Assembly: GCA_937136025.1 (NCBI GenBank)
Contig: CAKZOC010000121.1
Location: forward strand, 45,121-109,120
Length of the DNA: 64,000 nucleotides
DNA from: an uncultured Bacteroidota bacterium
Lineage (GTDB): Bacteria > Bacteroidota > Bacteroidia > Flavobacteriales > Flavobacteriaceae
Direction of reading: 5' to 3'
The position numbers and the translations under genes were made by a program. Numbering within the stretch: position 1 is the stretch's first letter; every line of letters starts with the position of its first letter. The notes under the pieces were generated by a model. It ran no database searches. It was not told the DNA's origin and was given only the letters and a program-made list of their open reading frames with translations. Positions 5,742-29,081 of the stretch are shown here, piece by piece.

Positions 5742-5743
5742 AA

Positions 5744-10393: not shown

Positions 10394-12034
10394 ATGAAAA
10401 GATTTGAATTGAAATTCTTATCCCTTGCTTTCCTGGCGGTATTCGGGCTGTACTCCTGTACCGATTTGGAAATTGAGGAAACGGATTCCTTCATTAGTGA
10501 AGGTTTCCAAGGCCTGGAAGATCCCCAGTCCGCACTAGACCAGCTGTACAACCAGGTGGGTGGACAACTGGGAGATCAGGCCAATACGTATGCCCTTACC
10601 TCTGTCACTACAGACGAGCAATTGGTCCCGACTCGAGGGGCTGACTGGGGAGATAACGGGCGTTGGAGAAAGCTCCACCAACACGAATGGGGCTTTGAGG
10701 AAACCGACATCCTAACACCTTTTGATCAGTGGAACTCCGATCAATTACTCGCTTCTCAGATTTTGGATGAGCGTAGTGCAGCTCCTGCCGGGGTTGCGGC
10801 TCAGGCACACTTCTTACGGGCCTGGTCCATGTATATGATCCTGGATCTTTACGGGCAGGTACCTTTTAGAGATACTCAGCTTTCCTCTACAACGGTTCCC
10901 GAAGTTCTTTCCGGTGCTGCTGCTGTTGATTTTATCCTATCCGACCTTGACGCTGCCATCGCTGGTTTACCAGCAACCGCTGCAGGTACTGGAGAACAAA
11001 ATAAAGCCAGCAAAGCCGCAGCCCGCCTGTTAAAAGCTAAAATGCTCTTAAACCGCAGCACTTTTGAAAGTCAGCTGGGTGAGCCATCGCCTGTTAATGT
11101 TGCCGACATGCAGGAAGTAGTTAATCTGGTAGATGCCATCGCCGCTGATGGTTATGCATTACAGTCAGGGTACTTTGAAATTTTCGAGCCTAGTACGGAC
11201 ACTGAAACGATTTGGTTTATCGATTCCGGAAATACTGGAAACCGTATTTTCAACGGCTTACACTACAACTCTACCGGATTAGGTGGAGGGGGATGGAACG
11301 GTTTCAGTACACTGGCCGAATTCTACGACCTCTTTGAAGGAGATCCGAATCAGAACCGTTATGCCTCAGATGTCGAAAGTGCCCAGATTGACGGGCAGGA
11401 AGAGCGTCGCGGTGGTGTTCCAAATATCGGAGTGCCATTTACAAACCGGCCTGGCTCCTCTGATGACAATGGAGGTTTCGAAGATGGTTCTAACGTAGGG
11501 AACGGATTCCTGATCGGTCAGCAATACGCCCTCGATGGCACTCCATTGGAAGACCGTCAGGGAAATCCTCTGGAATTCTCTCGCGGATTTGTGGACGGAA
11601 ACGGAGCACCGAGCCTCATCAACAACAGTGAGCGCACCGGGATTCGTGTCATGAAGTACAACCCTCGTAATGGTGGTGGATTTGCCAACCACGTGATGGT
11701 TATGAGATATGCAGATGCTCACCTGATGAAAGCTGAGGCTATCCTTCGCGGGGCCAGTGGTGGTGATGCCACAGCCCTGGTGAACGAACTTCGGACCATC
11801 AGAAACGCAACGCCACTGGGATCTGTAGATGCATCAGATCTTTTAGACGAAAGAGGACGTGAATTATACTGTGAGTGGTGGAGAAGAAACGACATGATCC
11901 GTTTCGGACAGTACACTCGTCAGTGGGAATTCAAGAGCGATGCCGAGACAGGTAATGCTGCCCGTAATTTGTTCCCAATTCCACTGCCACAATTACTGGC
12001 AAATCCGAATCTGGTTCAAAACCCCGGATACTAG
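10394..12034 (+). CDS. susD: RagB/SusD family lipoprotein
   Basis: Lipobox LYSC, RYADAHLMKAEA, LLDERGRELYCEWWRRNDMIRFG, terminal QNPGY. Confidence 0.97.
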   Translation: MKRFELKFLSLAFLAVFGLYSCTDLEIEETDSFISEGFQGLEDPQSALDQLYNQVGGQLGDQANTYALTSVTTDEQLVPTRGADWGDNGRWRKLHQHEWGFEETDILTPFDQWNSDQLLASQILDERSAAPAGVAAQAHFLRAWSMYMILDLYGQVPFRDTQLSSTTVPEVLSGAAAVDFILSDLDAAIAGLPATAAGTGEQNKASKAAARLLKAKMLLNRSTFESQLGEPSPVNVADMQEVVNLVDAIAADGYALQSGYFEIFEPSTDTETIWFIDSGNTGNRIFNGLHYNSTGLGGGGWNGFSTLAEFYDLFEGDPNQNRYASDVESAQIDGQEERRGGVPNIGVPFTNRPGSSDDNGGFEDGSNVGNGFLIGQQYALDGTPLEDRQGNPLEFSRGFVDGNGAPSLINNSERTGIRVMKYNPRNGGGFANHVMVMRYADAHLMKAEAILRGASGGDATALVNELRTIRNATPLGSVDASDLLDERGRELYCEWWRRNDMIRFGQYTRQWEFKSDAETGNAARNLFPIPLPQLLANPNLVQNPGY

Positions 12035-12061
12035 TAAAGCACAGTGAATTAAATTCTACAG

Positions 12062-12090
12062 AAAAGCTACCTTCGGGTAGCTTTTTTTTT
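12062..12090 (+). terminator. Rho-independent terminator after susD
   Basis: AAAAGCTACC-TTCG-GGTAGCTTTT: perfect stem, UUCG loop, T9 tail. Confidence 0.92.
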
Positions 12091-12229: not shown

Positions 12230-15200
12230 ATGAAAAGGATTCATGTCGCAAGTTTGTTGCTGGTTATAATATGCGGTTGCACTAAAGCCCCCTCGCCTGA
12301 CTTCACTCGTCTTTCCCCCTCACAGACAGGAATCCATTTTTCCAACTCCCTTCAGGAGACGCCGGAACTCAATATCCTCACCTACCTCTATTATTACAAC
12401 GGAGGAGGCGTTACGGTGGCCGATTTCAACCAGGACACCCTCCCGGATATCTATTTTGGAAGTAACCAATCTGCCGATGCGCTGTATCTGAATCGGGGCA
12501 ATATGACTTTTGAAAAGGTCACAAAGAGATCCGGTATCTCCAATGGAGACGGCTGGACCACCGGGACCACCCACGTGGATATTAACGGAGACGGCTTACA
12601 GGATATCTATATCTGCAAAGCTTCCGGGTATCGTGCCCTCCAGGGCCGGAATTTATTGTATCTGAATCTGGGTGTGGATTCCGACGGAATCCCCAAATTT
12701 GACGAACGTGCCGCCGACTTTGGTCTGGACTTTTCAGGACTATCCACCCAGGCCGCCTTTTTTGATTACGACCTCGATGGGGATCTCGATCTCTTCCTCC
12801 TGAATCATTCGGTCCATCCGAACCGGACCTATGGCAAGGGCAGTCAGCGCCTTATCCCGGACAGCCTCTCCGGGGATCGTTTTTTTCGAAACGACAATGG
12901 TTTTTTTACAGACGTGAGCTCGGAAACGGGTATTTTCCAGGGAAAAGCGGGTTATGGCCTGGGGGTTGGAATCAGTGATCTGAACGCCGACGGTTATCCG
13001 GACATCTATGTGGGGAATGACTTTTTTGAGAATGACTACCTCTACATAAATAATGGGGATGGCACCTTCCGGGAAGTCATTTCTGCTGGAGAAGGCCAGG
13101 TGGGGCACACGACCCATTTCAGTATGGGCAATGACCTTGCCGACATCAATAACGATGGCCTGGTAGATATTCTTTCTCTGGACATGCTCCCCGAAGACCT
13201 GATCACCTATAAGACTTCCGGATTGGAATACGCCTACCCCATATACCGACAATACCTCAATAACGGATTTGCGCCCCAATACATGCAAAACACCCTCCAA
13301 CTCAATACAGGCGACAATCGCTTTTCTGAGATTGCCTTTCTCAGTGGGGTTGCCGCCACCGAATGGTCGTGGGGGGGACTCTTTGTCGACCTCGACAATG
13401 ATGGATTTAAAGATCTGTTTGTTACCAATGGCATCAAGGGCGCCACCAACGACATGGACTATATGAATTTTATAGCCAATGAGGACATACAAAGAAGAAT
13501 AGACCGCGGCATGGAGGATACAGATCTTCCGCTTACACGTGAAATTCCCCCAAAAAAGGTGTCGAACTACGTCTTCAGGAACAACGGGGATCTTACGTTT
13601 ACGGACAAAACTTCTCCATGGCTCGGGCAAGAACCCACTTTTAGCAATGGAAGCGCCTATGCCGACCTGGATAATGATGGGGATCTGGACCTGGTAGTCA
13701 ACAACCTCGATCAGCCAGCCACCATTTATCAGAACGATTTGGAAACCGGGAATTCCATCGTCCTGCACTTTTCAGGTGCCGGCGCAAACACCAGGGGTAT
13801 AGGGGCACGGGTACTTGCGTATACGGACGGAAGTCTGCAGGTATTTGAAAATTTTACGACCCGGGGTTACCTTTCCGCCGTTCCGGCACATATACAAATT
13901 GGTTTGAATCAAGCCGAATCGCTGGACTCCGTAGTTGTTATTTGGCCCGGAGGCGCTTTTGAAAAACGTCAGGGACTCCCTGTCGGAAATGCCATCACGC
14001 TTAAACAGGAAGACGCCAGGGGGAATTACTATTCCCGACCTGCACCTGAATCGCTTTGGCAAACCCGCGACAGCGTAATTCCTTTTGTACACAAAGAAAA
14101 CACCAGTCTGGACTTTGACCGTGAACCCCTGATCGCCTACGCCAGGTCTAACCAGGGCCCGGCGATTTCTATTGGGGACGTCAACCGGGATGGGACGGAT
14201 GATATCTTTGTAAGCGGAGCCAAGCGGCAGGCGGGATCCCTGTTTCTGCAGGGACCTGAAGGTGTTTTTTCAACAATGGTTCCTGAACCTTTCGCTCAGG
14301 ATGCCCTTAGTGAGGATACCGGTCATGTGTTTTTCGATGCAGACGGGGATGCGTGGCTGGATTTGCTAGTGGTCAGCGGGGGGAATGAATTTGCACAAGG
14401 CCCTGCCCTGAGACCGCGATTTTACAGAAACCGGAGCGGGCGGTTCGAAAAAGACAGTCTGGCCTTTGAAGGTTTTAGCATCAATGCTTCCGCTGTGGAT
14501 ACCATTGATATAGACCAGGATGGAGATCTCGACATTTTCATCAGTTCCGATGCCGTCCCGGGGGCTTTTGGGAAAACACCGGAGCACAGGTTTTTTGAAA
14601 ACGACGGGACAGGAAGATTTACAGCTGTTAGCGCCGGTCTTATTCCGGAACTCCAAACTTATGGGCCCATTGACGACTTTAGCTGGTCCGATCTGAACGG
14701 GGACGGAAGTTTGGATTTAGTGGTTGCGGGCCACTGGGGACCAGTTGCTGTTTTTTACAATACCGGATTGGGATGGGAACGGGGAACCCACAACGGACTG
14801 GATGCCTCCAATGGCTGGTGGAACTGCATTGAGGTCACCGATATAGACCAGGATGGGGATTTAGATTTAATCGCGGGAAACTGGGGACTCAATAGCAAGT
14901 TCCGGGCCAGCCCCGAGACACCCCTTACGCTCTATCGGAGCGACTTTGACCAAAACGGATCTGAGGAGCCGGTGGTGACGTATTACCACAAGGGCGTGGA
15001 AACGCCTTTTGCCTCCCGGGATGAACTGGGAAAACAAATGCCTTTTCTCAATAAAAAATACCGGACCTATCACGACTTTGCCGGGGCGACCCTTGAAGAA
15101 CTATTTGGAGCCGAAGCCTTGCGGAGAGCCGAAAAAAAAGAAGTGTTTGAGTTGCGAAGCTGTGTATTTCTCAACGATGGGCATGGGCAGTTTGAAAAAA

Positions 15201-15514
15201 TACCCCTGCCCAATATCGGGCAGGCTTCCACCATTTACGATTTTCTCCCAGAAGATGTGGATGGAGACGGAGATAAGGATCTCATCCTGATCGGGAACCT
15301 TCACGAGATGAGCACTCAACTGGGACGCCTGGACGCCTTTCAGGGGTTCGTACTGAAAAATAATGGGGCTGGCTCCTTTTCCTGGGCTCCTGAAATGGCT
15401 CTTCCTGTGTCAGGTGCCGGACGGGTTATTGAGACGCTTCGAATTGAAAATAAAACACATTATATCATTGGGAGAAATAACGCTGCTCCCCTATTTCTAT
15501 CAAAACATGAATAA
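12230..15514 (+). CDS. FG-GAP/VCBS-repeat ASPIC/UnbV (CRTAC1-like) lipoprotein 1
   Basis: Lipobox ICGC, YNGGGV, many DxDxDGDxD loops (DLDNDGDLDLVVNN), ASPIC motif RGYLSAV...DSVVVIWPGG; 1094 aa. Confidence 0.9.
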   Translation: MKRIHVASLLLVIICGCTKAPSPDFTRLSPSQTGIHFSNSLQETPELNILTYLYYYNGGGVTVADFNQDTLPDIYFGSNQSADALYLNRGNMTFEKVTKRSGISNGDGWTTGTTHVDINGDGLQDIYICKASGYRALQGRNLLYLNLGVDSDGIPKFDERAADFGLDFSGLSTQAAFFDYDLDGDLDLFLLNHSVHPNRTYGKGSQRLIPDSLSGDRFFRNDNGFFTDVSSETGIFQGKAGYGLGVGISDLNADGYPDIYVGNDFFENDYLYINNGDGTFREVISAGEGQVGHTTHFSMGNDLADINNDGLVDILSLDMLPEDLITYKTSGLEYAYPIYRQYLNNGFAPQYMQNTLQLNTGDNRFSEIAFLSGVAATEWSWGGLFVDLDNDGFKDLFVTNGIKGATNDMDYMNFIANEDIQRRIDRGMEDTDLPLTREIPPKKVSNYVFRNNGDLTFTDKTSPWLGQEPTFSNGSAYADLDNDGDLDLVVNNLDQPATIYQNDLETGNSIVLHFSGAGANTRGIGARVLAYTDGSLQVFENFTTRGYLSAVPAHIQIGLNQAESLDSVVVIWPGGAFEKRQGLPVGNAITLKQEDARGNYYSRPAPESLWQTRDSVIPFVHKENTSLDFDREPLIAYARSNQGPAISIGDVNRDGTDDIFVSGAKRQAGSLFLQGPEGVFSTMVPEPFAQDALSEDTGHVFFDADGDAWLDLLVVSGGNEFAQGPALRPRFYRNRSGRFEKDSLAFEGFSINASAVDTIDIDQDGDLDIFISSDAVPGAFGKTPEHRFFENDGTGRFTAVSAGLIPELQTYGPIDDFSWSDLNGDGSLDLVVAGHWGPVAVFYNTGLGWERGTHNGLDASNGWWNCIEVTDIDQDGDLDLIAGNWGLNSKFRASPETPLTLYRSDFDQNGSEEPVVTYYHKGVETPFASRDELGKQMPFLNKKYRTYHDFAGATLEELFGAEALRRAEKKEVFELRSCVFLNDGHGQFEKIPLPNIGQASTIYDFLPEDVDGDGDKDLILIGNLHEMSTQLGRLDAFQGFVLKNNGAGSFSWAPEMALPVSGAGRVIETLRIENKTHYIIGRNNAAPLFLSKHE

Positions 15515-18500
15515 ATCGATATCGTTTATCACTGGTTTGGGCATCGCCTGCCTTCTTTTTCTGGGCTCATGTACAGAGCAGGAAAAAGCAACGGAGTTGG
15601 CCGAAACAGCAGTCCCTACCCTCTTTACGCTCATGCCACCGGACAGCACCGGCGTGGATTTTGTGAATACCGTAGAAAACCAGAAAAACTTCAATATCTT
15701 CAAATACCGGAATTTTTACAACGGAGGGGGAGTTGCCATTGGAGACATCAATAATGACGGCTTACCGGACCTTTTTCTGACCGGAAACATGGTGCCGAAC
15801 CGGTTGTATCTGAACAAAGGTAATTTTGAGTTTGAGGATATCTCCGAGCGTGCGGGGGTTTTGGGCAATAAGCCCTGGTCTACCGGGGTGGTGATGGCCG
15901 ACGTGAATGCGGATGGCTTGCTGGATATCTATGTCAGCAACGCAGGGAATCTGGAAGGAAACAACCACGACAATGACCTGTACATCAACAATGGGGACCT
16001 GACGTTTACCGAGCGGGCCGAAGAATTCAACCTGGCCAAAACCGGCTTTACCACCCATGCTACATTTTTTGATTATGACAAAGATGGAGATCTGGACGCC
16101 TATATCCTGAACAATAGCAACATTCCCGTCAGCAGTCTGGGATACGCCGAACAGCGTGAAGTTCGGGCTCAGGACTGGGAAGGTGTGCCCCACATCTTCA
16201 GAGGTGTGGGCGATATGCTGCTGCGCAATGATGGTGGCAAATTTGTCGATGTCAGTGAAGAGGCTGGAATTTATGGTAGCCTGATCGGGTTTGGACTTGG
16301 GGTGATGATTTCGGATTTCAACCAGGACCGGTATCCGGACATTTATGTTTCTAACGATTTCTATGAGCGGGATTACCTGTACATCAATAACGGAAACGGC
16401 ACATTCTCAGAACAGATTAAGGAATGGACCAACCACCTCAGCCTTTCGGCTATGGGTATAGACATCGGCGATATCAACAACGATGGCTACCAGGATATTT
16501 TTATTACCGACATGCTGCCCGAGCCCGAAGAGCGGGTCAAGTCGGTTATGGAGTTTGAAGGCTATAAGGTTTTCGACCTGAAACGCGGGAAAGACTTCTA
16601 TCAGCAATACATTCAGAACACCCTCCAATTGAATAATGGAAACGGAACGTTTTCAGAGATTGCCTACTACAGTGGAGTCGACGCCACAGACTGGAGTTGG
16701 GCCGGACTCCTCTTCGATATGGACAATGACGGGCTGCGGGATATTTTTATCACTAACGGCATCAATCACGATCTCACCGATCTGGACTTCGTCGATTTTT
16801 TTGCCGATGAGATTATTCAGAAAATGGCCCTGACCGGTAAGAAGGAATCCATCGATTCCATTATCACAAAAATGCCGATCAAACCCCAAACCAATTACGC
16901 CTACAGGAACAAGGGAGACCTCACATTCTCAAAAGAAAACAGCGCCTGGGGATTCGATACGCCCACGCGCAGTAATGGGGCGGCCTATGGGGATCTGGAC
17001 AACGATGGAGATCTGGACCTGGTCATCAACAACGTCAACATGGAGGCTTATCTCTACAGGAACAATACGCAACAAATGCAGGACAACAGCTATCTGCGCA
17101 TGAAATTTAAGGGATCAAAACAGAATCCTTTTGCTATTGGCACCACGGTCATGGGGTATAAGGGATCTGAAGTATTCATTCAGGACCTGATGCCTTCCCG
17201 GGGTTTCCAGTCTTCGGTGGATTATACCCTGGTCTTCGGTCTGGGAAAGGCCCAGGTTTTGGACTCCCTGCGGGTCATCTGGCCGGATGAAAAGACCGAG
17301 TTACTGCGCAATGTCGCTGTCAATCAGGAACTCGTATTCGAACAGGAGCAGGCCAGCGAAAGGTATGCACGGGCTAAAAACAAGGGAGGGAGTACCTATA
17401 TGAGTGAAATTTCTCAAAAAAACCTGCAGGCTCACGAAGAGGACAATTACAATGATTTTGACCATGAGGGACTGATTTACAGTAAATTATCTCAGGAAGG
17501 GCCCGCCCTGGCCACAGGGGATGTGAATGGGGATGGCCACGAAGATGTCTTTTTTGGAGGGGGAACGGACCAATCTGCAATCCTCTACTTCCATCAAGGC
17601 GAGGGAAAACTGCGCAAACAGGCCGTTCCTGCTTTTGAAGCCGATGCCGCTTTTGAAGATACGGCAGCCGCCTTCTTTGATGCGGACGGAGATCAGGACC
17701 TGGATCTCATTGTGGCTACAGGAGGAAACCAGGTGGGGAAGAACCGAACGTACAGGCCCCGACTCTATCTGAATGACGGCAAGGGCAACTTTCAAAAATC
17801 CGGTACGGACCTGCCTACTTCCTTTAAAAACATGTCTACCGTTAGCCCGGAAGATTTTGACGGGGATGGGGATATGGATGTTTTTATCGGTTCGAGGTCG
17901 GTAGTCGGTATTTATGGGGTGAATCCGAACCATCTCCTTCTGGAAAACCAGGGGGATGGTACTTTCCGGGATGCGACCGAACGCCTGGCGAACGACATGA
18001 AAGATACCGGTATGGTTACGGCTTCGGTATGGACCGATCTGGATGGAGACGGCAAAAATGACTTGTTTGTAACCACCGACTGGGACAGCCCCAAGATTTA
18101 TCGCAACAATGGGAGAAAGCTGACGAAGTGGAATACCGGCCTGGACAGTCTGCGTGGATGGTGGAATACGGTAACCGCGGCGGATCTGGATGGCGACGGA
18201 GATCAGGATCTGATTTTGGGCAATGACGGTTCGAATATGCACTACCTTCCAAAACCTGGAAGTCCGATGAAAATGTGGGTCAATGATTTTGACAACAACG
18301 GAACCCTGGAACAAATTATTACCGTACAGGAAAACGGCAGGGACTATCCCATACACATGAAGAAAGAACTGACCGGTCAATTAGTCTCCCTTAAAAAGGA
18401 AAACCTCAGAGCTTCTGTATACGCCAAACGAACCATTCAGGAGCTTCTTCCCCAGGAGGTGGTTGCTAATTCTATAGTCAAGGAGGTCAATATAACGGAG

Positions 18501-18866
18501 TCTGTACTGCTGATCAATGAAGGGGGATGGAAATTCCGGGTCCAAAAACTACCTGAAAGAGTACAACTCTCCTGTATTTGTGGGATCGCCTGTATGGACG
18601 TGAATAACGATGGCCACCTGGACCTGGTTATGGGTGGGAACAAACACGAATTCAAACCTCAGTTTTCGCGACTCGATGCGGGGTATGGCAATGTCCTGCT
18701 CGGAGATGGAAATTTAGATTTCCAGTGGCAGCAATACGATCAAAGCGGGTTTTTTGTGAGAGGAGAAGTAAAATATATAAAACCGATCCGCGACCGAAAC
18801 GGCAAAACCTACTTAGTCGTTGCCCTGAATGAAGACCAACCCAGAATCTTTAAACTGGATGAATAG
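15507..18866 (+). CDS. FG-GAP/VCBS-repeat ASPIC/UnbV lipoprotein 2
   Basis: Start moved to ATG 15507 (MNKSISF...LGSC lipobox); RGFQSSV...DSLRVIWPD; 1119 aa; overlaps the previous gene by 8 nt. Confidence 0.9.
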   Translation: MNKSISFITGLGIACLLFLGSCTEQEKATELAETAVPTLFTLMPPDSTGVDFVNTVENQKNFNIFKYRNFYNGGGVAIGDINNDGLPDLFLTGNMVPNRLYLNKGNFEFEDISERAGVLGNKPWSTGVVMADVNADGLLDIYVSNAGNLEGNNHDNDLYINNGDLTFTERAEEFNLAKTGFTTHATFFDYDKDGDLDAYILNNSNIPVSSLGYAEQREVRAQDWEGVPHIFRGVGDMLLRNDGGKFVDVSEEAGIYGSLIGFGLGVMISDFNQDRYPDIYVSNDFYERDYLYINNGNGTFSEQIKEWTNHLSLSAMGIDIGDINNDGYQDIFITDMLPEPEERVKSVMEFEGYKVFDLKRGKDFYQQYIQNTLQLNNGNGTFSEIAYYSGVDATDWSWAGLLFDMDNDGLRDIFITNGINHDLTDLDFVDFFADEIIQKMALTGKKESIDSIITKMPIKPQTNYAYRNKGDLTFSKENSAWGFDTPTRSNGAAYGDLDNDGDLDLVINNVNMEAYLYRNNTQQMQDNSYLRMKFKGSKQNPFAIGTTVMGYKGSEVFIQDLMPSRGFQSSVDYTLVFGLGKAQVLDSLRVIWPDEKTELLRNVAVNQELVFEQEQASERYARAKNKGGSTYMSEISQKNLQAHEEDNYNDFDHEGLIYSKLSQEGPALATGDVNGDGHEDVFFGGGTDQSAILYFHQGEGKLRKQAVPAFEADAAFEDTAAAFFDADGDQDLDLIVATGGNQVGKNRTYRPRLYLNDGKGNFQKSGTDLPTSFKNMSTVSPEDFDGDGDMDVFIGSRSVVGIYGVNPNHLLLENQGDGTFRDATERLANDMKDTGMVTASVWTDLDGDGKNDLFVTTDWDSPKIYRNNGRKLTKWNTGLDSLRGWWNTVTAADLDGDGDQDLILGNDGSNMHYLPKPGSPMKMWVNDFDNNGTLEQIITVQENGRDYPIHMKKELTGQLVSLKKENLRASVYAKRTIQELLPQEVVANSIVKEVNITESVLLINEGGWKFRVQKLPERVQLSCICGIACMDVNNDGHLDLVMGGNKHEFKPQFSRLDAGYGNVLLGDGNLDFQWQQYDQSGFFVRGEVKYIKPIRDRNGKTYLVVALNEDQPRIFKLDE

Positions 18867-21800
18867 AGCTATTGTCATAGGAAGTGCCCTGGTCGTATTG
18901 TTGTCCGGATGCCGGCAAGGTGGCGATATGTTCGAGGCGCCCGGGCCCGGACAGACCGGAGTGCACTTTACCAACGCACTCACGGAGACAGATGCCCTGA
19001 ATATTCTGGACTACCTCTATTTCTACAATGGGGGGGGCGTGGCCCTGGGGGATATCGACGGAGACGGGCTGCCTGATATTTACCTCTCCGGGAACCAGGT
19101 CGGAAACAAGCTGTTCCGGAATCTGGGGGGAATGAAATTTGAAGACATCACCGAAGAGGCAGGGGTGGAAGGAAAGAGCAGTTGGAATACAGGCGCTGTG
19201 ATGGGAGATGTAAACGGAGATGGCTTTTTGGACATCTACGTTTGCGCCGTGGTGGGAATCAATGGTTTTACCGGTCACAACGAACTCTTTATCAACAATG
19301 GAGACGGGACTTTTAGCGAACAGGCCGGGGCTTACGGCCTGGATTTTGACACCTTTAGTTCCAATGCCGCCTTTCTGGATTACGATCTGGATGGCGATCT
19401 GGATATCTACTTGCTGAACCATGCCGTGCATACCCAGGATTCCTACGGAAAAGCATCGCTCCGGTACCAGCGCGATTACGATACAGGAGATAAACTCCTT
19501 AGAAACGACGGGGATACCTTCAAGGACGTAAGCGCCGAGGCCGGGATTTTTGGCGGTATTAATGGCTATGGCCTGGGCATCGCAGTTTCAGACTTTAACC
19601 TGGACGGGTACCCGGACCTGTACATTGGAAATGATTTTCACGAAGACGATTACTATTATGTGAATAATGCCGACGGAACGTTTACAGAAAGCCTCCGTTC
19701 GTACTTCGGGCATACCAGCCGGTTCTCCATGGGCAGCGATGCGGCAGATATCAACAATGATGGCCGACCCGATCTGATTTCCCTCGATATGCTGCCCCGG
19801 GACGAGGTTCCCCTGAAGTCTTCCGAGGGGGATGACAATATTCAGACCCAGCGCATGCGCATTGGAGCCTACGGGTATTACTACCAGTTTACCCGCAATA
19901 TGCTCTATGTCAACCAACCGGATAATCGCTTTATGGAAACCGCCCTGATGAGCGGGGTCGCCGCTACGGATTGGAGCTGGAGTGCGCTGTTTGCAGATTT
20001 TGACCAGGACGGCTTTCAGGATTTGTTCGTTTCCAATGGGATTCCCAAAAGACCCAACGACCTGGATTTTGTGAAGTTTGTGTCCAATGAACAAATCAGC
20101 AGCACCATCAGCAATACGAAACTGGTCGATCAGAAGGCGCTCAATATGATGCCTTCCGGAAATACCCGGAATTTCGTATTTCAGGGATCAGAAAACCTGG
20201 AATTCAAGGATCGGTCTGAGGCCTGGATCCGGCAGGACACGCTCCTCTCCGGGGCGACTGCCTGGGGAGACCTGGACCGGGACGGCGATCTGGACCTGGT
20301 GATCAACAACCTGAATCAACCGGCCAGTATTCTGGTCAACAAAGGAAAGGGTAACACCTCCCTCACCCTGAAACTTAAGTATACAGGAAAAAACCCCTAC
20401 GGAGTGGGTGCCAAAGTGTTTATGTACTTCGAAGGAGGGGTGCAGATGCGGGAGCTATTTCCCGTCCGCGGTTTTCAATCCTCTTCAGAACCCCTGATCC
20501 ACTTTGGAACCGGACAGGCTGCGCAGGTGGATTCCGTACGAATTATCTGGCCTGACGGACGCTGTCAGGTAGAAAAGGACCTTCCTACCGGTCAGCTTCT
20601 GGAAATTGCGATGAAGGACACCCGTGCGTTTGACTACGCCTCACTGCAGCCCGAGCCTTTGCCTCTTTTTAAAAAGCTGTCAATGCCCCTGGGCATCGAT
20701 TTTGTACATCAGGAAGACATTTATACAGACTTTAACCGGGAAAAACTCCTGCCCTACAGCCTCGCCGATCGCGGCCCCGCTTTTGCCAGGGGGGACCTCA
20801 ATGGAGACGGGAAGGAAGATCTGTTTTTCGGGGGTTCTAAGCGAATCGCCCCGGCCGTTTATTTTGCTGCAGACAGTAGTTTTACGCGTCAGCCGGTGGA
20901 TGAAATAGCCCTGGACAGCTTGCAGGAAGATGTAGCCGCTGTTATTGCCGATCTTGACGCCGACGGCCGGAATGACCTGCTTCTGGGTTCCGGGGGAGGT
21001 GATTATTTTGGGGAAGCCCCTCCCTTACTGGACCGATATTACAGAAATTCCCCTTCCGGTTTACAACAGGTGTCCTTTCCCGGGAACTATGCGAACACCT
21101 CCGTGATCCGGCCCTTTGATTACGATCGGGACGGAGATCTGGACCTTTTTCTGGGCACACAGAGTCTTACCGGCCGCTTCGGGGAAATACCCACGAGTTA
21201 TCTGCTGGAAAATACCGGTGGAAATTTTACAGAAGTTGAAAGTTTTAAAGGGGAATCTCTGGGGATGATCACCGACGCGGTTTGGAGCGACTTCGACGCA
21301 GATGGACGCACAGACCTCATCGTTGTTGGGGAGTGGATGTCTCCCCGTTTTTTCAAAAACACCACAGAAGGCCTTCAGGAGATTGCCTTCGAAGGTCCTT
21401 CAGGGCTCTGGCAATGCATAAGTCCCCACGACATAGACGGGGACGGAGATATGGATTACCTGCTCGGGAACTGGGGAACCAATTCTAAGTTTGTGGCCTC
21501 CCCTGCTGAGCCCCTGAAGATGTATTTTTCAGATTTTGATTCGAATGGGAGTACGGAAACCGTTCTGGCGACAGCTAAAAAGGGCTCCTATTATACGCTG
21601 GTGGGCCTGGATGATCTGGGCTCACAAATGGTCAGCTTGCGGAAAAAATATCCGGACTACAAGAGCTTTGCCGGGAAACCGATTGAAGATATCTTTGGGG
21701 CCGAAGCGCTGCAGACGGCCCGGTTATATGAAGCAACCGAGTTGCGGTCCGGGTATCTTAAAAATGACGGTGGGCGTTTTACCTTTATTCCGTTTCCCAA

Positions 21801-22104
21801 TAGCATGCAGGTAGCTCCGGTGCTGACATTCCTGCCCTATGACTTTAATGGAGACGGCAAAACGGAAGTACTGGCCGCAGGAAATTACTTTGGCGTAAAA
21901 CCCTATCAGGGAAGATTGGATGCCTTTCCCGGAGCCCTCATCCTGGGGGAATCCGAGATTCTTCCGGGAAACCGGATTGGCCTGGATTTTATGAATAAGT
22001 CCATCCGGCATCTGTCGGTCATCGAGCTGAACGGTGAGCCCTTTCTGTTGGCAGTTTTTAATGCGGATACCGCACAAGTGTACCAATTAATGAAAAACAA
22101 TTGA
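18859..22104 (+). CDS. FG-GAP/VCBS-repeat ASPIC/UnbV lipoprotein 3
   Basis: Start moved to ATG 18859 (MNRAIV...LSGC lipobox); RGFQSSS...DSVRIIWPDG; 1081 aa; 8-nt overlap with the previous gene. Confidence 0.9.
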   Translation: MNRAIVIGSALVVLLSGCRQGGDMFEAPGPGQTGVHFTNALTETDALNILDYLYFYNGGGVALGDIDGDGLPDIYLSGNQVGNKLFRNLGGMKFEDITEEAGVEGKSSWNTGAVMGDVNGDGFLDIYVCAVVGINGFTGHNELFINNGDGTFSEQAGAYGLDFDTFSSNAAFLDYDLDGDLDIYLLNHAVHTQDSYGKASLRYQRDYDTGDKLLRNDGDTFKDVSAEAGIFGGINGYGLGIAVSDFNLDGYPDLYIGNDFHEDDYYYVNNADGTFTESLRSYFGHTSRFSMGSDAADINNDGRPDLISLDMLPRDEVPLKSSEGDDNIQTQRMRIGAYGYYYQFTRNMLYVNQPDNRFMETALMSGVAATDWSWSALFADFDQDGFQDLFVSNGIPKRPNDLDFVKFVSNEQISSTISNTKLVDQKALNMMPSGNTRNFVFQGSENLEFKDRSEAWIRQDTLLSGATAWGDLDRDGDLDLVINNLNQPASILVNKGKGNTSLTLKLKYTGKNPYGVGAKVFMYFEGGVQMRELFPVRGFQSSSEPLIHFGTGQAAQVDSVRIIWPDGRCQVEKDLPTGQLLEIAMKDTRAFDYASLQPEPLPLFKKLSMPLGIDFVHQEDIYTDFNREKLLPYSLADRGPAFARGDLNGDGKEDLFFGGSKRIAPAVYFAADSSFTRQPVDEIALDSLQEDVAAVIADLDADGRNDLLLGSGGGDYFGEAPPLLDRYYRNSPSGLQQVSFPGNYANTSVIRPFDYDRDGDLDLFLGTQSLTGRFGEIPTSYLLENTGGNFTEVESFKGESLGMITDAVWSDFDADGRTDLIVVGEWMSPRFFKNTTEGLQEIAFEGPSGLWQCISPHDIDGDGDMDYLLGNWGTNSKFVASPAEPLKMYFSDFDSNGSTETVLATAKKGSYYTLVGLDDLGSQMVSLRKKYPDYKSFAGKPIEDIFGAEALQTARLYEATELRSGYLKNDGGRFTFIPFPNSMQVAPVLTFLPYDFNGDGKTEVLAAGNYFGVKPYQGRLDAFPGALILGESEILPGNRIGLDFMNKSIRHLSVIELNGEPFLLAVFNADTAQVYQLMKNN

Positions 22105-22106
22105 AA

Positions 22107-23480
22107 ATGCAGAATCTACGTTTCGTTTCACTCCTCGCGCTGATAGTCCTCTCGGCCGCCTGTAGTTCCCCTTCAGAACCTATCGAAATAACCGCGGAAG
22201 AACTCCACGCTTCGACAGATAAACTGACCGATGTGATGGTGCACGACATTTTCAGCCCTCCTGTGGCGAGTCGTGTCTATGCCTATCCGAGTATTGCGGC
22301 CTATGAAATTATGGCCCTTCACTCAGATTCGTATCGCTCCCTTCAGGGACAGGTATCGGGTTTAACCGCTATTCCCAAACCGAAAACGGACTCCCCTATG
22401 AACTATCGGCTTGCAGCCCTTATCGCTCATATGGATATGGGAAGGAGGTTGATTTTCTCAGAAGATAAGGTTACGGCATTCAGAGACAGTCTTTACAGTG
22501 TTTGGGAAAAACGAAATCCCAGGGAATTTGAAACCGCACGAACCTATGGGCTGGAGGTCGCCGAATTTATGGCGGCCTGGATGAAGGAAGACAATTACAA
22601 CCAGACGCGCACCATGTCTAAATTCACGGTCGACACAGATGATCCGTCGCGCTGGCAACCTACCCCACCCTCGTACATGGAGGGTATTGAGCCACACTGG
22701 AACAAAATCAGGCCATTTGTCATTGATTCCGCCGCTCAATTCAAACCCACACCCCCTCCGCCTTTCGATATGGAAGAAGGGTCCGCCTTTTACGAGGAGG
22801 TCAAAGAGGTTTACGAGATCAGTAATGAAATCACCGAGAAAGGTGATGCATCGGAAGAAGTGGCTATTGCCCAGTTCTGGGATTGCAATCCCTATGTCTC
22901 TGTAACACGGGGTCACCTGATGTTCGCCACCAAAAAAATCAGCCCCGGAGCGCACTGGATGGGGATTACCAAGATAGCCTGCCGGGATACAAAGAGTGAT
23001 TTCGACAAAACCACATATGCCTATGCGAAAACGGCTATCGCCATGGCGGATGCTTTTATCAGCTGTTGGGATGAAAAATACCGCAGTAACTTAATCCGGC
23101 CTGAAACCCTGATCAACGAATACATAGACGACAGCTGGAAGCCTGTATTGCAGACCCCGCCTTTTCCGGAATATACCAGCGGTCATAGTGTGGTGTCCGG
23201 GGCAGCATCGGTAGCCCTAACAGATATCTTCGGTCCCGCCTTTGCATTTGACGATGACACGGAGCTGAAGTACGGTCTGCCGATTCGCAGTTTTGCATCC
23301 TTCCAGGCTGCCGCAGACGAAGCGGCCATCAGCCGGATGTACGGAGGAATACACTATCGCAAAGCCGTGGAAGTCGGCGTTAAACAAGGGCGCGATCTGG
23401 GAAAATTCGTCATAGACCACCTGGAGATGCTGGAAGGCAGTAAAGAGGTCGCCACCCTTTCGGGGACCGATAATAATTAA
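22107..23480 (+). CDS. Vanadium-dependent haloperoxidase (PAP2 superfamily), lipoprotein, probable iodoperoxidase
   Basis: Lipobox SAAC; vanadate-binding motifs CWDEKYRSNLIRP, PPFPEYTSGH and SRMYGGIH; ATG is 2 nt after the upstream stop. Confidence 0.9.
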   Translation: MQNLRFVSLLALIVLSAACSSPSEPIEITAEELHASTDKLTDVMVHDIFSPPVASRVYAYPSIAAYEIMALHSDSYRSLQGQVSGLTAIPKPKTDSPMNYRLAALIAHMDMGRRLIFSEDKVTAFRDSLYSVWEKRNPREFETARTYGLEVAEFMAAWMKEDNYNQTRTMSKFTVDTDDPSRWQPTPPSYMEGIEPHWNKIRPFVIDSAAQFKPTPPPPFDMEEGSAFYEEVKEVYEISNEITEKGDASEEVAIAQFWDCNPYVSVTRGHLMFATKKISPGAHWMGITKIACRDTKSDFDKTTYAYAKTAIAMADAFISCWDEKYRSNLIRPETLINEYIDDSWKPVLQTPPFPEYTSGHSVVSGAASVALTDIFGPAFAFDDDTELKYGLPIRSFASFQAAADEAAISRMYGGIHYRKAVEVGVKQGRDLGKFVIDHLEMLEGSKEVATLSGTDNN

Positions 23481-23516
23481 TTGATTTCAGTACGATCCTG
23501 TTATTAAATACAATAC

Positions 23517-24419
23517 ATGAAAAAAACTGTTTTTGGCATTCTGATTGTTCTGCTTGTGGCGTTTATAGGCTATTTTATCATTTATCCCTATGACTACATC
23601 ATCCGCTTTGAGGCCAACACTTTTCCCGGAACAATCAACCAGTCTGTAAAGCTTTGGGACAAAACTGTGGGAGTCCCCGGGAACCCTTTGGTGCAGGAAG
23701 ATCTCTATCATTTGGAACAGCACGTTCAGGCCGGAGATTCCGTCCATATTTACAATTGGGAAATAACCCCTCTGACCGAGAATACTTCCAGGGTAACCGT
23801 ACGGATCAAAGACCGGGATCACAGTTGGAAAAATAAACTCCTGGTTCCCTTTACGGAGGCCGAAGTTGAGCGCTCGGGGGTAAAACACGTCAAAGATTTT
23901 GTCAATGACCTCAACGATCATATCGACCTCTTTAAAGTACAAATCGACGGAGAGGCTGAACTCCCGAGCACTTTTTACGCCTACGTGGATCTCAAGACCA
24001 ACCAGCACGGAAAGGCAGGGGGCATGATGGATACGTACAATATGCTCAGCGATGTGCTGATCCGAAGTAACGTCACGATGAACGGCCCGCCCATGATCCT
24101 TGTGGATCAGTGGGACCGGGAAACCGATAGCCTGGAATATCGGTTTTGTTTCCCCATCATCCGTTCCGATAAATTGCCTCAACATCCGGACATCAAATAC
24201 AATCGGATTTTTCCAAAACCTGCACTTAAAGCCACCTATAACGGGAATTACATCACTTCGGACCGGGCGTGGTATGCCCTTTTGAACTACGCCGAAAAGA
24301 ATGGGCTGGAGGTGGAAGAAACCCCGGTAGAGGTCTTCTTTAACAATCCCAATATGGGGGGTGATGCATTGCAGTGGAAAGCTGATGTGTATTTACCGCT
24401 TAAGGAAGAAGCCGAATAA
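23517..24419 (+). CDS. GyrI-like small-molecule-binding domain protein with N-terminal membrane anchor
   Basis: Hydrophobic N-terminus, then a C-terminal effector-binding-like domain (GPPM, YNGNYITSDRAWYAL, PVEVFFNNP). Confidence 0.7.
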   Translation: MKKTVFGILIVLLVAFIGYFIIYPYDYIIRFEANTFPGTINQSVKLWDKTVGVPGNPLVQEDLYHLEQHVQAGDSVHIYNWEITPLTENTSRVTVRIKDRDHSWKNKLLVPFTEAEVERSGVKHVKDFVNDLNDHIDLFKVQIDGEAELPSTFYAYVDLKTNQHGKAGGMMDTYNMLSDVLIRSNVTMNGPPMILVDQWDRETDSLEYRFCFPIIRSDKLPQHPDIKYNRIFPKPALKATYNGNYITSDRAWYALLNYAEKNGLEVEETPVEVFFNNPNMGGDALQWKADVYLPLKEEAE

Positions 24420-24439: not shown

Positions 24440-24460
24440 CCCTTTTTCAAGGGTTTTTTT
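24440..24460 (+). terminator. Probable terminator at the end of the cassette
   Basis: CCCTT-TTTC-AAGGG followed by T7; the stem is short. Confidence 0.5.
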
Positions 24461-24503: not shown

Positions 24504-25982
24504 ATGTATTTTATCGGCTACGACCTGGGGAGTTCATCTTTAAAAACAGCCCTGGTGGATGCTGAGACAGGGGAAACCCTCACCGTGATCAAAACCCCGG
24601 CAGAAGAACTTGGAATTGATGCCCCCCGGGCAGGCTGGGCAGAACAGGACCCGGAACTCTGGTGGCGGTGTATTTGCGAGGGTACCCGTGAACTCCTTTC
24701 CGCCACGAAGGTAGCCCCTGAGGCTATTTCCGGAATCGGTATCGCGTATCAAATGCACGGGCTGGTCACTTTAGATGCTGCCGGCCGTTCTGTTCGTCCG
24801 GCGATCATCTGGTGCGACAGCCGGGCCATTTCCATTGGGGATCAGACCCTGGAGGAATTGGGAGAAACCCGTTGCCAGGCTCAATTATTGAATGTACCCG
24901 GAAATTTTACAGCCTCTAAACTGCGTTGGATGCAACAGGAGGAGCCTGAGGCTTTTCAAAAGACCAGGACTTTCCTGTTACCCGGGGATTATATTGCCTA
25001 CCGATTTACAGGAAAACCCCAAACCACGGCAAGCGGGCTTTCAGAAGGCATCCTATGGGACTTTCAAAAAGGACAACCGGCCTACTGGCTGCTCGAGCAT
25101 TGGGGCATACCGGACGCGCTGGTACCGGAAATCGTTCCCACCTTTGGCCATCAGGCAGAAGTAAGTCAGGCCGGTGCCCGGGCTACCGGTTTAAAAGAGG
25201 GGACTCCCATACTGTACCGGGCTGGAGACCAGCCCAACAATGCTTTTACACTGAATGTTCTGGAGCCCGGAATAGTTGCGGCTACAGGAGGCACCTCAGG
25301 AGTGCTTTACGGAATCACGGATTCTCCTGAGGTTAAAGAGCTGCAGCGCTTTAACCATTTCCTGCACGTCAACCACGCCCCGGGGCGCCTTCGTATCGGA
25401 CAACTGTTATGCATCAATGGAGCGGGAAGCTTATACCGCTGGTTGAAAGATCAATTAAACGTCTCGGGCTACAAGCAGATGAATGCTCTTGCCGCAGAGA
25501 TCCCCGTGGGTTCAGACGGGCTTATCTGTTTTCCGTTTGGAAACGGAGCCGAACGAATGCTCGAAAACAGATCCATAGGAGCCTGTTTCTCAGGTCTTGA
25601 GTTTAACCGCCACCACAAAGGACACTTATGCCGGGCCGCTTTAGAAGGTATAGCCTTTGCATTCCGGTACGGAATGGAGCTCATGGAAGAGAGCGGGGTA
25701 CCCTTTAAAACGATCCGTGCCGGCAATGACAACCTCTTTCAATCCAATATCTTTACCACTACCCTGGCGGCCTTAGGCCAGACGCCTATCGAGCTTTTTG
25801 AGGTCACAGGAGCAGTCGGGGCTGCGAGGGCATGTATGGTGGAGCAACTCGGGCTTGAGGAGACGATAAAACGCGCTACCGGAAAGGATTATCTGGGCAC
25901 AGTGCTTCCTGACAGGGAGGATGAGGACTACCAAAAAGCCTATTTAAAATGGAAGACAGAACTTCAGAATAATTTAAACTAA
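24504..25982 (+). CDS. xylB: Xylulokinase (FGGY family)
   Basis: [36 protein letters not shown] and TGGTSGV motifs; directly upstream of xylA. Confidence 0.92.
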
Positions 25983-25987
25983 GAATC

Positions 25988-27313
25988 ATGCCACTACTTG
26001 GAGACACAGAGTATTTTAAGGGAATCGGACAAATTCCTTATGAGGGGAAAGACTCGGATAATCCCCTTGCTTATAAATATTACGACCCGGAGCGTTTGGT
26101 GGGCGGCACACCCATGAAGGCGCATTTTAAATTCGCGGTGGCCTACTGGCATAGCTTCTGCGGTACAGGAGCAGATCCATTCGGGCCCGGCACGCTCAGA
26201 CATCCCTGGGATCTTGCGGATGACCCTGTAGCAGCTGCCCGGCAAAAAGCCGACGCCGCCTTTGAGTTTATCACCAAGCTGGGATTCGAATACTTCTGTT
26301 TTCACGATTTTGACCTGATCGCTGAAGCCCCTACGCTCATGGAATCGGAAAAAAGGCTCGAAACGATGGTTCCATATCTCAAAGAAAAAATGCAGGCCTC
26401 CGGAGTTAAGCTCCTCTGGGGTACCGCGAATTGCTTTAGCCATCCCCGGTATATGAACGGAGCATCCACAAATCCTGACTTCAGGGTGGTGGCCCGGGCC
26501 GGAGCCCAGATCAAAGGGGCCATGGACGCCACCATCGCCCTGGGGGGGGAAAACTATGTGTTCTGGGGAGGGCGGGAAGGCTATATGTCCCTGCTCAACA
26601 CCCAGGTGGGGAAAGAACTGGATCATATGGGTCGTTTCCTGGGTATGGCCCGGGATTACGCGCGGAGCCAGGGTTTTAAGGGCACCTTTTTCATTGAACC
26701 CAAGCCCATGGAACCCATGAAACACCAGTACGACTACGATGCGGCCACCGTTATCGGCTTCCTGCACCAATACGGCCTGCAGGACGATTTTAAACTCAAT
26801 CTGGAAGTGAATCACGCTACCCTTGCCGGCCATAGCATGCAACATGAAATGGAGATCGCCGCATCACGCGGGATGCTCGGGAGTATTGATGCGAATCGGG
26901 GCGATTACCAGAACGGATGGGATACCGACCAGTTTCCCAACAACCTCAATGAGGTGACCCTGATGATGCTGACTCTTTTGGAAGCCGGCGGCTTGCAGGG
27001 GGGCGGTATTAATTTCGATGCGAAACTCCGCCGAAATTCCACGGATCCGGAAGATCTCTTTCTCGCGCATATCGGGGGGGCAGATACCTTTGCCAGGGCA
27101 CTTCTGATCGCCGATCGCATCCTCCGCGAATCCCCATATCGGGAAGTGCGCCGGCAGCGATATGAATCCTTCGAATCGGGAAAAGGAGCCGCCTTTGAGC
27201 TGGGAAAACTAAACCTTCAGGACTTGTATGCCATTGCCCTGGAACAGGGGGAGCTCCCCTTACAAAGCGGCAAACAGGAAATGTTGGAAAACCTCGTCAA
27301 TCGCTATATTTAA
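25988..27313 (+). CDS. xylA: Xylose isomerase (class II)
   Basis: [44 protein letters not shown] and NFDAK motifs. Confidence 0.97.
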
Positions 27314-27393
27314 TAGGTTATAACCCAATATATCGGACACCAGAATTCCGCCATACAGGAAGTGGCATCGCCCCCATTGCCAATGGACTACTA

Positions 27394-27434
27394 CCTACTG
27401 CTACTGCCTACTGGCCACTGGCCACCGGCTACTG
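27394..27434. repeat. Degenerate heptamer tandem array ([G/C]C[C/T]ACTG x6)
   Basis: cctactg-ctactg-cctactg-gccactg-gccaccg-gctactg; the last unit contains the SSS gene stop codon. Confidence 0.7.
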
Positions 27435-29081
27435 GGCAAAATAGATATAAATCAGCACGACAATAGCCACAATTCCAATACCCACCTGTTTCACATACTT
27501 GTAGGGCGTGATCTCAACCTGGTTCGTATACTCGAGTGTATACGGATCTGCTTTAGGCCAAATTTTGCCGATCACAAGCATCAGGATGATATTCAGAATA
27601 AACAGTATAGCCATAATGTGGAGGTAGTGCGGATAGGCATCTGCCTGAATCTGCCTTAAAGCAATCTCATCGGTAATCCCACTTTCCCCGGCGGCCGCTA
27701 ATGCCGCTTCCACCCGGCCTGGGCCAATAAAAAATTGACTCAGGATATAGAGCCCTGAACCCAGGAAAATAGCGATTTTGGCGGCGATAGCCGGAACCCG
27801 CCTGGTGAGGTACCCTACGACGATAATCGTCAGTATAGGAATGCTGTAAATACCATTTACTTCCTGAAGATATTGAAAAATACTTCCCGCGTTTTCTATG
27901 ACAGGGGCCACAAACATAGCCGCGAGCGCCAGAAAAACACCAAATATTTTACCGTATTTCACCACGGTGCGTTCGGAGGCCTCAGGGTTGATATGCTGCT
28001 TGTAGATGTCAATACCGAAAAGGGTGACCGAACTGTTCAGCACGCTGTTAAAGGAACTCAGTATAGCCCCGAAAAGCACGGCTGCAAAGAAGCCCACCAG
28101 GTATTTGGGTAATACGGCCCGCACCAGTTCGGGATAGGCGAGGTTACTGGAAGACAGCCCGCCATCGAAATAGTGATAGGCGATCATCCCGGGGAGTACC
28201 AGGATGATGGGGCCGAGAATTTTTACAAAGGCCGCCAGAAGGAGCCCCTTCTGACCCTCCTGCAGGTTTTTGGCACCCAGGGCCCGCTGGATTATCTGCT
28301 GGTTGGTTCCCCAATAAAAAAGTTGCACGAGCATCATCCCGGTGAAGATGGTGATAAATGGCACTTCCTGCCAGGACTCTCCTGTGGAATCAAAACGTTC
28401 TGGCTGGGCCGCCATCAGGGTTTCAAGACCGTTCATCGCACTCCCGTCCCCGATGGCCATGAGGCCGAATAAAGGAATCAGAAATCCACCAATCAAAAGG
28501 CCAACTGCATTGATGCTGTCTGAAACAGCTACAGCTTTTAACCCCCCGAAAACGGCGTAGATAGATCCGATAATTCCAATCCCCCAGATGCACAGTGTAA
28601 TGGCGGCAGATTCCGAAACTCCCAGCAAGGTGGGAAAATCAAACATCCCGCTTATGGCCACGGATCCCGAATAGAGAATAACCGGCAGCAGTACTACCAC
28701 ATAGCCCGTTAAAAACAGGGCTGAGGTAATCGTTTTTGTAGTAATATCAAAGCGCTTGGCCAGGAATTGGGGTACCGTGGTAAGTCCGCCTTTGAGATAA
28801 CGGGGCAACAAAAAGAGGGCTGTAATGACCATGGTAATCGCTGCCAAAGTCTCCCATGCCATTACCGATAACCCATCCCGGTAGGCGCTGCCATTGAGCC
28901 CTACGATCTGTTCCGTGGAGAGGTTGGTGAGCAATAAAGACCCTGCAATAACGCCCGCGGTCAGGCTACGCCCACCCAGGAAATATCCGTCTGATGTTTT
29001 TTCGTTCGTTGACCTGGTGGCGAAGTAGGAGATGATTCCTACCATGGCTGTAAATCCGACAAAAGACAGAATACCGATCAT
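27429..29081 (-). CDS. Sodium:solute symporter (SSS family, YidK-like sugar symporter)
   Basis: GYFLGGRSL, TNLSTEQIVG, YWGTNQQIIQRALGA and SSFNSVLNS motifs; many TM segments. Confidence 0.92.
   Translation of the reverse strand: MIGILSFVGFTAMVGIISYFATRSTNEKTSDGYFLGGRSLTAGVIAGSLLLTNLSTEQIVGLNGSAYRDGLSVMAWETLAAITMVITALFLLPRYLKGGLTTVPQFLAKRFDITTKTITSALFLTGYVVVLLPVILYSGSVAISGMFDFPTLLGVSESAAITLCIWGIGIIGSIYAVFGGLKAVAVSDSINAVGLLIGGFLIPLFGLMAIGDGSAMNGLETLMAAQPERFDSTGESWQEVPFITIFTGMMLVQLFYWGTNQQIIQRALGAKNLQEGQKGLLLAAFVKILGPIILVLPGMIAYHYFDGGLSSSNLAYPELVRAVLPKYLVGFFAAVLFGAILSSFNSVLNSSVTLFGIDIYKQHINPEASERTVVKYGKIFGVFLALAAMFVAPVIENAGSIFQYLQEVNGIYSIPILTIIVVGYLTRRVPAIAAKIAIFLGSGLYILSQFFIGPGRVEAALAAAGESGITDEIALRQIQADAYPHYLHIMAILFILNIILMLVIGKIWPKADPYTLEYTNQVEITPYKYVKQVGIGIVAIVVLIYIYFAQ

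Follow-up and report, generated by a model that had tools for sequence, protein, structure and literature searches.

Can the active-site residues of a vanadium-dependent haloperoxidase (VHPO) tell us which halide the enzyme oxidises? The question is raised by a gene in a 64-kb stretch of contig CAKZOC010000121.1 from an uncultured flavobacterium of marine sediment (the whole stretch is hereafter called the window). A previous description made from the letters and their translations (the sequence-only reading) held that its product carries an iodoperoxidase-type residue set matching Zg-VIPO1 of Zobellia galactanivorans. Here we find that the residue match, judged by sequence comparison, marks an orthologue of Zg-VIPO1 and not an iodide-specific enzyme as such. 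The fitting label would thus be 'Zg-VIPO1 orthologue, probably iodoperoxidase', not 'iodoperoxidase by residue signature'. We consider it likely that the gene encodes a vanadate-dependent haloperoxidase, a lipid-anchored Zg-VIPO1 orthologue probably co-produced with three FG-GAP/VCBS and UnbV_ASPIC lipoproteins (hereafter ASPIC proteins) and a GyrI-like protein.

The VHPO coding sequence, orthologous to Zg-VIPO1, occupies 22107..23480 on the plus strand (457 codons plus stop). An alternative start in the open reading frame (ORF) list, TTG 22101, overlaps the upstream stop codon and would prepend 'MK' and shift the residue numbers by 2. ATG 22107 is favoured by an orthologue that is 90% identical and also 457 aa long (L001), as well as by the remaining orthologues, and the mature protein beyond Cys19 is unchanged whichever start is used. 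Translation of 22107..23480 (+) placed all of the residues named in the sequence-only reading, Trp321 included, exactly where it had put them. They comprise Y263 (22893..22895), a second-sphere residue common to the window VHPO and Zg-VIPO1, and three motifs of the PAP2 type, all on the plus strand: C320-W321-D322-E-K324-x6-R331-P332 at 23064..23102 (the PAP2 KxxxxxxRP motif with a Trp before it), F353-P-E-Y-T-S358-G359-H360 at 23163..23186 (PSGH-type, with the catalytic His), and R410-M-Y-G-G-I-H416 at 23334..23354, in which H416 is the predicted vanadate-bonding His. The three motifs, with K324, R331, P332, R410 and H416, are invariant in one alignment (A1). The vanadate-ligand set is complete, as had been claimed, being the same as that of the Curvularia inaequalis chloroperoxidase (CiVCPO) by alignment and identical to that of 4CIT, the crystal structure of Zg-VIPO1. 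A local Pfam scan of the protein returned PAP2 only (E 2.7e-10), PF22778 (VCPO_2nd) and PF01569 being precomputed Pfam annotations, and NCBIfam held no model matching the protein.

How close is the relationship to Zg-VIPO1? A phmmer search of all PDB chains gave one strong match, 4CIT/4USZ ('vanadium-dependent haloperoxidase'; E 6e-224, residues 11-446), and the residue match is therefore no chance pattern. By BLASTP the window protein is 70% identical to 4CIT across 439 aa with one gap, the identity being uneven along the chain (81% over residues 251-440, 60-64% in the N-terminal half). The alignment to Zg-VIPO1, proposed as a check in the sequence-only reading, shows identity at all 12 active-site and second-sphere residues (Y263, C320, W321, D322, K324, R331, F353, S358, G359, H360, R410 and H416), which also carry the same numbers in both proteins. 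The primary paper on Zg-VIPO1 is reportedly that of Fournier et al. from 2014. The entry 4USZ bears the title 'first bacterial vanadium dependent iodoperoxidase'; a review table (PMC8407142) lists it as 'Zg-VIPO2', yet the chain sequences of 4CIT and 4USZ are identical in the PDB copy that we searched.

The shared numbering deserves some care. In the SEQRES record of 4CIT 8 additional residues come first, so that the native Met is at index 9, where the family profile starts with MKKILIALISFAFAVSC, and every window residue n beyond about 25 aligns with SEQRES n+8, with no indel beyond that point; window residue n is therefore native Zg-VIPO1 residue n. The numbers coincide because two 2-residue differences near the N-terminus cancel a 4-residue offset. 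Backing for the native numbering is indirect, coming from this SEQRES offset, from a paper in which His416 is the residue that anchors vanadate in Zg-VIPO1 (PMC12605662), and from the Z. uliginosa orthologue (L016), which is 98% identical to 4CIT and 450 aa long with the N-terminus MKKILIALLSLAFAVSC. The statement in the sequence-only reading that the match includes the numbering is thus upheld.

With each species represented by one genome, a scan for relatives found at least 598, and the locus analyses below concern the best 80. All named organisms among these belong to the Flavobacteriaceae, several loci being labelled only Bacteroidota or Bacteroidia. The best named relatives are Robiginitalea (R. 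aurantiaca, 87%), and the NCBI name for close relatives (up to 87% identical) is 'vanadium-dependent haloperoxidase'. The loci of all four Zobellia species (L016, L017, L038, L044) keep the order of the window, with three ASPIC genes followed by the VHPO gene and then a GyrI-like one. Further Zobellia paralogues exist (VIPO2, VIPO3). Taken with the 98% identity of L016 to 4CIT, this shared gene order makes Zg-VIPO1, and none of the other Zobellia paralogues, the clear positional counterpart and orthologue of the window gene. We found no second VHPO paralogue within the 64-kb window. The gene itself is an ordinary one, widespread in flavobacteria, and represents one more orthologue of a family that is already structurally solved.

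Does the shared residue set diagnose an iodoperoxidase? Hardly any variation is seen at the 12 positions among 82 orthologues (position 263 is Tyr in 80 and Phe in 2; position 322 is Asp in 81 and Ala in 1). When 1.84 billion cluster representatives were searched exhaustively with HMMER, 6817 clusters passed E <= 1e-3, of which 831 also passed E <= 1e-30, and 128 full-length diverged representatives (35-63% identity) were aligned with the window protein and 4CIT. In these 130 sequences W321 (127), K324 (129), R331 (130), F353 (129), S358 (127), H360 (129), R410 (127), H416 (128) and G359 (109, otherwise Ala) are near-fixed, so that both W321 and F353 are clade-wide; position 263 varies (13 Tyr, 29 Phe, 17 Asn and others), as do C320 (90 Cys) and D322 (44 Asp), and only 8 of the sequences carry the complete string of 12 residues. 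As far as this alignment can tell, Y263, C320 and D322 alone are particular to the VIPO1 group. The representative search also brought up long fusion forms of 865 aa (P0124), 1294 aa (P0130) and about 600 aa (P0246, P0250, P0254).

The Trp/Phe pair moreover has its counterpart in the fungal chloroperoxidase. F353 aligns with F397 of CiVCPO (PPFPEYTSGH versus PPFPAYPSGH, motif PPFPxYxSGH), and a sub-profile (its positions 6-80 on CiVCPO 330-419) places W321, K324 and R331 on 350, 353 and 360, the correspondence of W321 with W350 being based on alignment coordinates and motif spacing. W350, K353 and R360 are published CiVCPO residues (PMC9144378; Lys353 also in PMC12605662). At the position of Phe397 the Corallina bromoperoxidase has His, the Zobellia iodoperoxidase keeps Phe and a bacterial chloroperoxidase has His, and the effect of Phe397 on specificity 'remains unclear' (PMC9144378); the bacterial chloroperoxidase NapH1 likewise has His where the window protein has F353. 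The distinction of Phe353 from the His of algal bromoperoxidases therefore stands (PMC9144378), whereas the claim that the set is of iodoperoxidase type in a diagnostic sense does not, the W/F pair being chloroperoxidase-type and near-invariant in the 130 sequences. A pair of this kind, fixed across the bacterial clade, is unsuited to calling iodoperoxidases from sequence.

With specificity not readable from the residues, iodide-only activity has to be argued from orthology. By analogy with Zg-VIPO1, which as an assay control showed iodoperoxidase activity only (PMC10427571), the window enzyme very probably oxidises iodide, and we lean, with clearly less assurance, towards iodide being the only halide that it would oxidise. 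The case for iodide specificity is built on Zg-VIPO1 orthology, that is, on the 70% identity, the conserved synteny and the common Y263, C320 and D322. Several points pull the other way: the W321/F353 pair is that of a chloroperoxidase (W350/F397 in CiVCPO), the determinants of halide specificity are largely unknown (PMC13198595), and a 2025 study switched the specificity of a cyanobacterial bromoperoxidase with a single mutation (PMC11871015). A divergence of 30% could thus alter specificity, since single substitutions switch it in other VHPOs. These points, together with the chloroperoxidases NapH1, NapH3 and CiVCPO as the nearest bacterial and fungal folds after 4CIT, could also be read as signs of a VHPO of broader specificity that oxidises bromide or chloride as well. 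We judge that unlikely in view of the same 12 residues in an orthologue with activity towards iodide only, the 81% identity to Zg-VIPO1 in the catalytic half and the positional orthology.

A structural model agrees with the assignment to the VHPOs. The AlphaFold2 model of the window protein (105 homologues in the input) has a mean predicted local distance difference test (pLDDT) score of 95.6, and its top Foldseek matches are 4USZ and 4CIT, with a target-normalised TM score of 0.98 and a root-mean-square deviation of 1.2-1.6 Å (1.2 Å for 4USZ). Behind them stand NapH3, XhnO11, NapH1 and CiVCPO (TMq 0.60-0.66), and lower down come acid phosphatases of class A and algal bromoperoxidases, which match part of the model only. 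As modelled, this is the two-helical-bundle VHPO fold with a VCPO_2nd domain. The acid phosphatases among these matches, the Pfam PAP2 domain, the SusCD-type nutrient-uptake neighbourhood around the gene (see below) and the capability of apo-VCPO for a phosphatase-like reaction (PDB 3BB0 title; PMC9144378) might be taken to mean that the protein serves in vivo mainly as a PAP2-type phosphatase or a phosphate or vanadate binder, halide oxidation being an in vitro side activity. We regard this as highly improbable: the full-length architecture with a second helical bundle (PF22778 VCPO_2nd) fits VHPOs, the acid phosphatases match only about 230 residues (TMq ~0.3), and Zg-VIPO1, its orthologue, has vanadate-dependent iodoperoxidase activity (PMC12605662; PMC10427571).

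For the preferred haloperoxidase, the course of the reaction can be sketched from the established VHPO mechanism (reviewed in PMC11871015, PMC12605662 and PMC9144378). Vanadate would be bonded to His416 and held by hydrogen bonds from Lys324, Arg331, Ser358, the Gly359 backbone and Arg410. Binding of H2O2 would give a side-on peroxovanadate, which would be activated by His360, acting in acid-base catalysis, and by Lys324 through polarisation of the peroxide. Attack of the halide on the peroxide would then yield hypohalous acid (HOI, then I2/I3-), with the redox state of the vanadium unchanged.

Where would this chemistry take place? The N-terminus MQNLRFVSLLALIVLSAAC satisfies a lipobox pattern of the PROSITE PS51257 type (LSAAC19, with Cys19 as the lipidated residue), which bears out the lipobox of the sequence-only reading; the membrane tethering that went with it is a prediction from sequence. 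The lipoprotein signal peptide MQNLRFVSLLALIVLSAA|C (22107..22163, +) would be cut before Cys19 (22161..22163), the predicted lipidation site, by signal peptidase II, leaving the enzyme, as predicted, lipid-anchored outside the cytoplasm. The pattern is satisfied in 71 of 81 orthologues, and all orthologues have an h-region followed by a Cys. The published export signal of Bacteroidetes lipoproteins is K-(D/E)2, Q-A-(D/E)2 or SDDFE adjoining the Cys (PMC5080379). In the window protein the Cys is followed by SSPSEPIE, in which an acidic residue first occurs at +6, and K[DE][DE] occurs at +2 to +8 in 23 of 71 orthologues. With this weak likeness to the export consensus K-(D/E)2 or SDDFE, surface exposure is uncertain, although possible.

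The VHPO gene closes a series of genes for predicted lipoproteins. Three ASPIC genes assigned by Pfam precede it on the plus strand at 12230..15514 (1094 aa; lipobox VIICGC), 15507..18866 and 18829..22104 (1091 aa), each with a lipobox and with 12-14 DxDxDG-type loops, an integrin-like Ca-binding pattern (12 in the first). For the second, the mechanical ORF from 15363 would overlap the first by 152 nt, whereas ATG 15507, with an overlap of 8 nt, is likely to be the start, giving a normal lipoprotein signal MNKSISF...LFLGSC. The third weakly matches cartilage acidic protein 1 in the PDB, and the ATG of the VHPO gene lies 2 nt beyond its stop codon. Downstream follows the GyrI-like gene (23517..24419, +; 300 aa; Pfam), the conserved partner of the VHPO gene on that side, whose product combines a hydrophobic segment at the N-terminal end (MKKTVFGILIVLLVAFIGYFII) with a C-terminal domain of the effector-binding type (PDB 7ZHE, E 9e-4). 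From these features it may be a membrane-anchored small-molecule binder adjoining the halogenating enzyme. A terminator-like hairpin with a T-run at 24440..24453 (+) is the likely 3' end of the unit. At the other end a Bacteroidetes-type -7 motif, TATTTTTG (12203, +), stands 27 nt before the first ASPIC gene; in all, the plus strand of the window has 22 motifs of this kind.

This arrangement is conserved well beyond the window. Relatives of the cluster (12230..24419, +) were covered in loci L001-L080, L081-L083 and L087, and conservation of the neighbours was followed by tblastn with the window neighbours over 80 loci. In 61 of the 72 loci with enough flank, the VHPO gene is preceded at a distance of less than 400 nt by the end of an FG-GAP/ASPIC gene on the same strand, and a GyrI-like gene lies directly downstream in 57 of 75. 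A SusD gene was seen within the 8-kb flank in 6 loci, a low count that arises because the three ASPIC genes fill the flank in most loci. Six distant homologues were looked up, two of which (P0180, P0236) lie on contigs too short to show neighbours; the other four (48, 43, 41 and 35% identity) all adjoin FG-GAP/UnbV_ASPIC genes, one within a LacI-SusC-SusD-ASPIC-VHPO string and two after large SusC-sized and SusD-sized genes. In some metagenomic loci two VHPO paralogues are interleaved with ASPIC genes (L087 5311..11765; L082 2..4877). A full-text search combining these gene names found, in the library searched, no papers linking VHPOs with ASPIC/SusCD clusters.

Assembled contigs from four sediment RNA libraries (X22-X25) fall on the cluster with 90-100% identity. 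One of 518 nt (21936..22453, 2 mismatches) spans the junction of the third ASPIC gene and the VHPO gene, and a second one (23078..23493) lies over the 3' end of the latter. These contigs are weak evidence, compatible with co-transcription in situ; they were assembled from oligo-dT libraries, where DNA carry-over is possible, which detracts from them. The VHPO is probably made together with the three Ca-binding-type FG-GAP/UnbV_ASPIC lipoproteins and the GyrI-like protein. Near-identical DNA was found in marine sediment, salt-marsh and macroalgal metagenomes by a sampled-word index that returns near-identical matches only; the exact protein has no entry in the contig index.

What might such a cluster do? 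In Arenibacter sp. C-21 an iodine uptake that depends on H2O2, O2 and Ca2+ has been described, for which a membrane-bound haloperoxidase was proposed (PMC5064120), and genomes of Arenibacter carry the same cluster (L033, L035, L045, L048). The co-occurrence suggests one functional module. We put forward, as a tentative proposal that we ourselves consider less likely than not, that a VHPO of the Zg-VIPO1 type is no stand-alone enzyme but the catalytic member of a conserved envelope lipoprotein module made up of three Ca-binding-type ASPIC beta-propeller-repeat proteins, the VHPO and the membrane-anchored GyrI-like binder, and usually located downstream of SusC/SusD. If true, the module would oxidise iodide and capture iodine, or process a substrate oxidatively, at the cell envelope, and it could be the genetic basis of iodine uptake in Arenibacter sp. 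C-21. The VHPO gene itself is no discovery, since its family has thousands of entries in the databases and a crystal structure is available; of more interest is the conserved ASPIC/SusCD/GyrI-like neighbourhood. ASPIC genes, usually with SusC/SusD, adjoin the genes for Zg-VIPO1 and for homologues as distant as 35% identity, which hints at a system of physiological partners in bacterial iodine oxidation, an idea that is genetically testable in Zobellia or Arenibacter.

Upstream of the cluster lie a SusC/RagA TonB-dependent transporter gene (7250..10375, +) and a gene for a SusD-like lipoprotein (10394..12034, +), both assigned by Pfam, the latter bearing a lipoprotein signal like those of the three ASPIC proteins and the VHPO, and followed by a strong terminator-like hairpin (12060..12087, +). 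Divergent from the SusC gene is a gene for a LacI-type regulator (5865..6890, -), which forms part of a maltose/alpha-glucan set (783..6890, -) with genes for a cyclomaltodextrinase-like protein of glycoside hydrolase family 13 (GH13), a maltose phosphorylase-like protein of family 65 (GH65) and a beta-phosphoglucomutase-like HAD protein. Between the LacI and SusC genes is a LacI-operator-type palindrome, ACGAAACCGTTTTCGT (7141..7156, +), a perfect match to a degenerate search pattern with 14 of 16 positions self-complementary and its only other window match at 57874; a Bacteroidetes -7 motif, TATATTTG, occurs at 7037. The LacI regulator may belong to the maltose/alpha-glucan genes, which it abuts, and not to the VHPO cluster, as the terminator-like hairpin and a separate -7 motif stand between the LacI/SusC region and the ASPIC genes. 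Beyond the cluster come xylB and xylA, then a sodium:solute symporter (SSF) gene on the minus strand (24504..29081 for the three). In about eight genomes (Ulvibacterium, Maribacter and Euzebyella; L006, L014, L018, L019, L021, L022, L042, L050) the VHPO gene comes directly after xylB-xylA-SSF, and in the window these genes come after the cluster, so that the neighbourhood has been rearranged yet kept together.

How does the window enzyme compare with the known systems? Only 4CIT was significant in the single-sequence phmmer search of the PDB; CiVCPO, the NapH enzymes and the algal bromoperoxidases (VBPOs) were reached by the family profile and the sub-profile, with CiVCPO aligned over 393-412 and 330-419 and the algal enzymes (1QI9, 1QHB, 1UP8) C-terminally only. 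The class A acid phosphatases (PhoN, E. blattae, PhoC) resemble it in all three catalytic motifs and in the core bundle of helices. They are single-bundle proteins of about 230 aa that lack VCPO_2nd and carry out phosphate chemistry, whereas the window protein has 457 aa and an additional helical bundle, which sets it outside that class.

The algal VBPOs of Ascophyllum (1QI9) and Corallina (1QHB, 1UP8) share the C-terminal vanadate motifs (profile E 1e-3 to 1e-5), but only about 100 residues align (TMq ~0.22), the profile alignment being confined to the C-terminal ~90 positions, and they have His in place of F353 (PMC9144378). With Phe353 and no whole-chain homology to them, the window protein falls outside these multimeric, bromide-oxidising enzymes. 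At the position of W321 the Corallina enzyme presumably has Arg, with which the PDB title 'R396W mutant' for C. pilulifera is consistent.

The Streptomyces enzymes NapH1 and NapH3 and related bacterial VHPOs (3W35/3W36, 8CXL, 9L8X, 9PTR) have the fold in common with the window protein (TMq 0.60-0.66) and conserve W-x-x-K-x6-RP. They differ in their low identity (~16-18%), in having His for F353 and, in NapH1, Ser for H360, and, unlike the window VHPO, they are substrate-selective enzymes of natural-product gene clusters. CiVCPO (1VNC/1IDQ) is closer in its active site, with K353, R360, S402, G403, H404, R490 and H496 corresponding to K324, R331, S358, G359, H360, R410 and H416, in addition to the W350/F397 pair, and both proteins have two helical bundles. 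It is nevertheless only ~15% identical (TMq ~0.6), being a secreted fungal enzyme of 609 aa that oxidises Cl-, Br- and I-. Zg-VIPO1 (4CIT/4USZ) resembles the window protein in its fold, its lipoprotein-type N-terminus and the gene neighbourhood in Zobellia. The differences are those of another genus, the window protein being Robiginitalea-like, and of the residues after the lipidated Cys, which are SSPSEP in the window protein versus KAPQKEEP in Zg-VIPO1.

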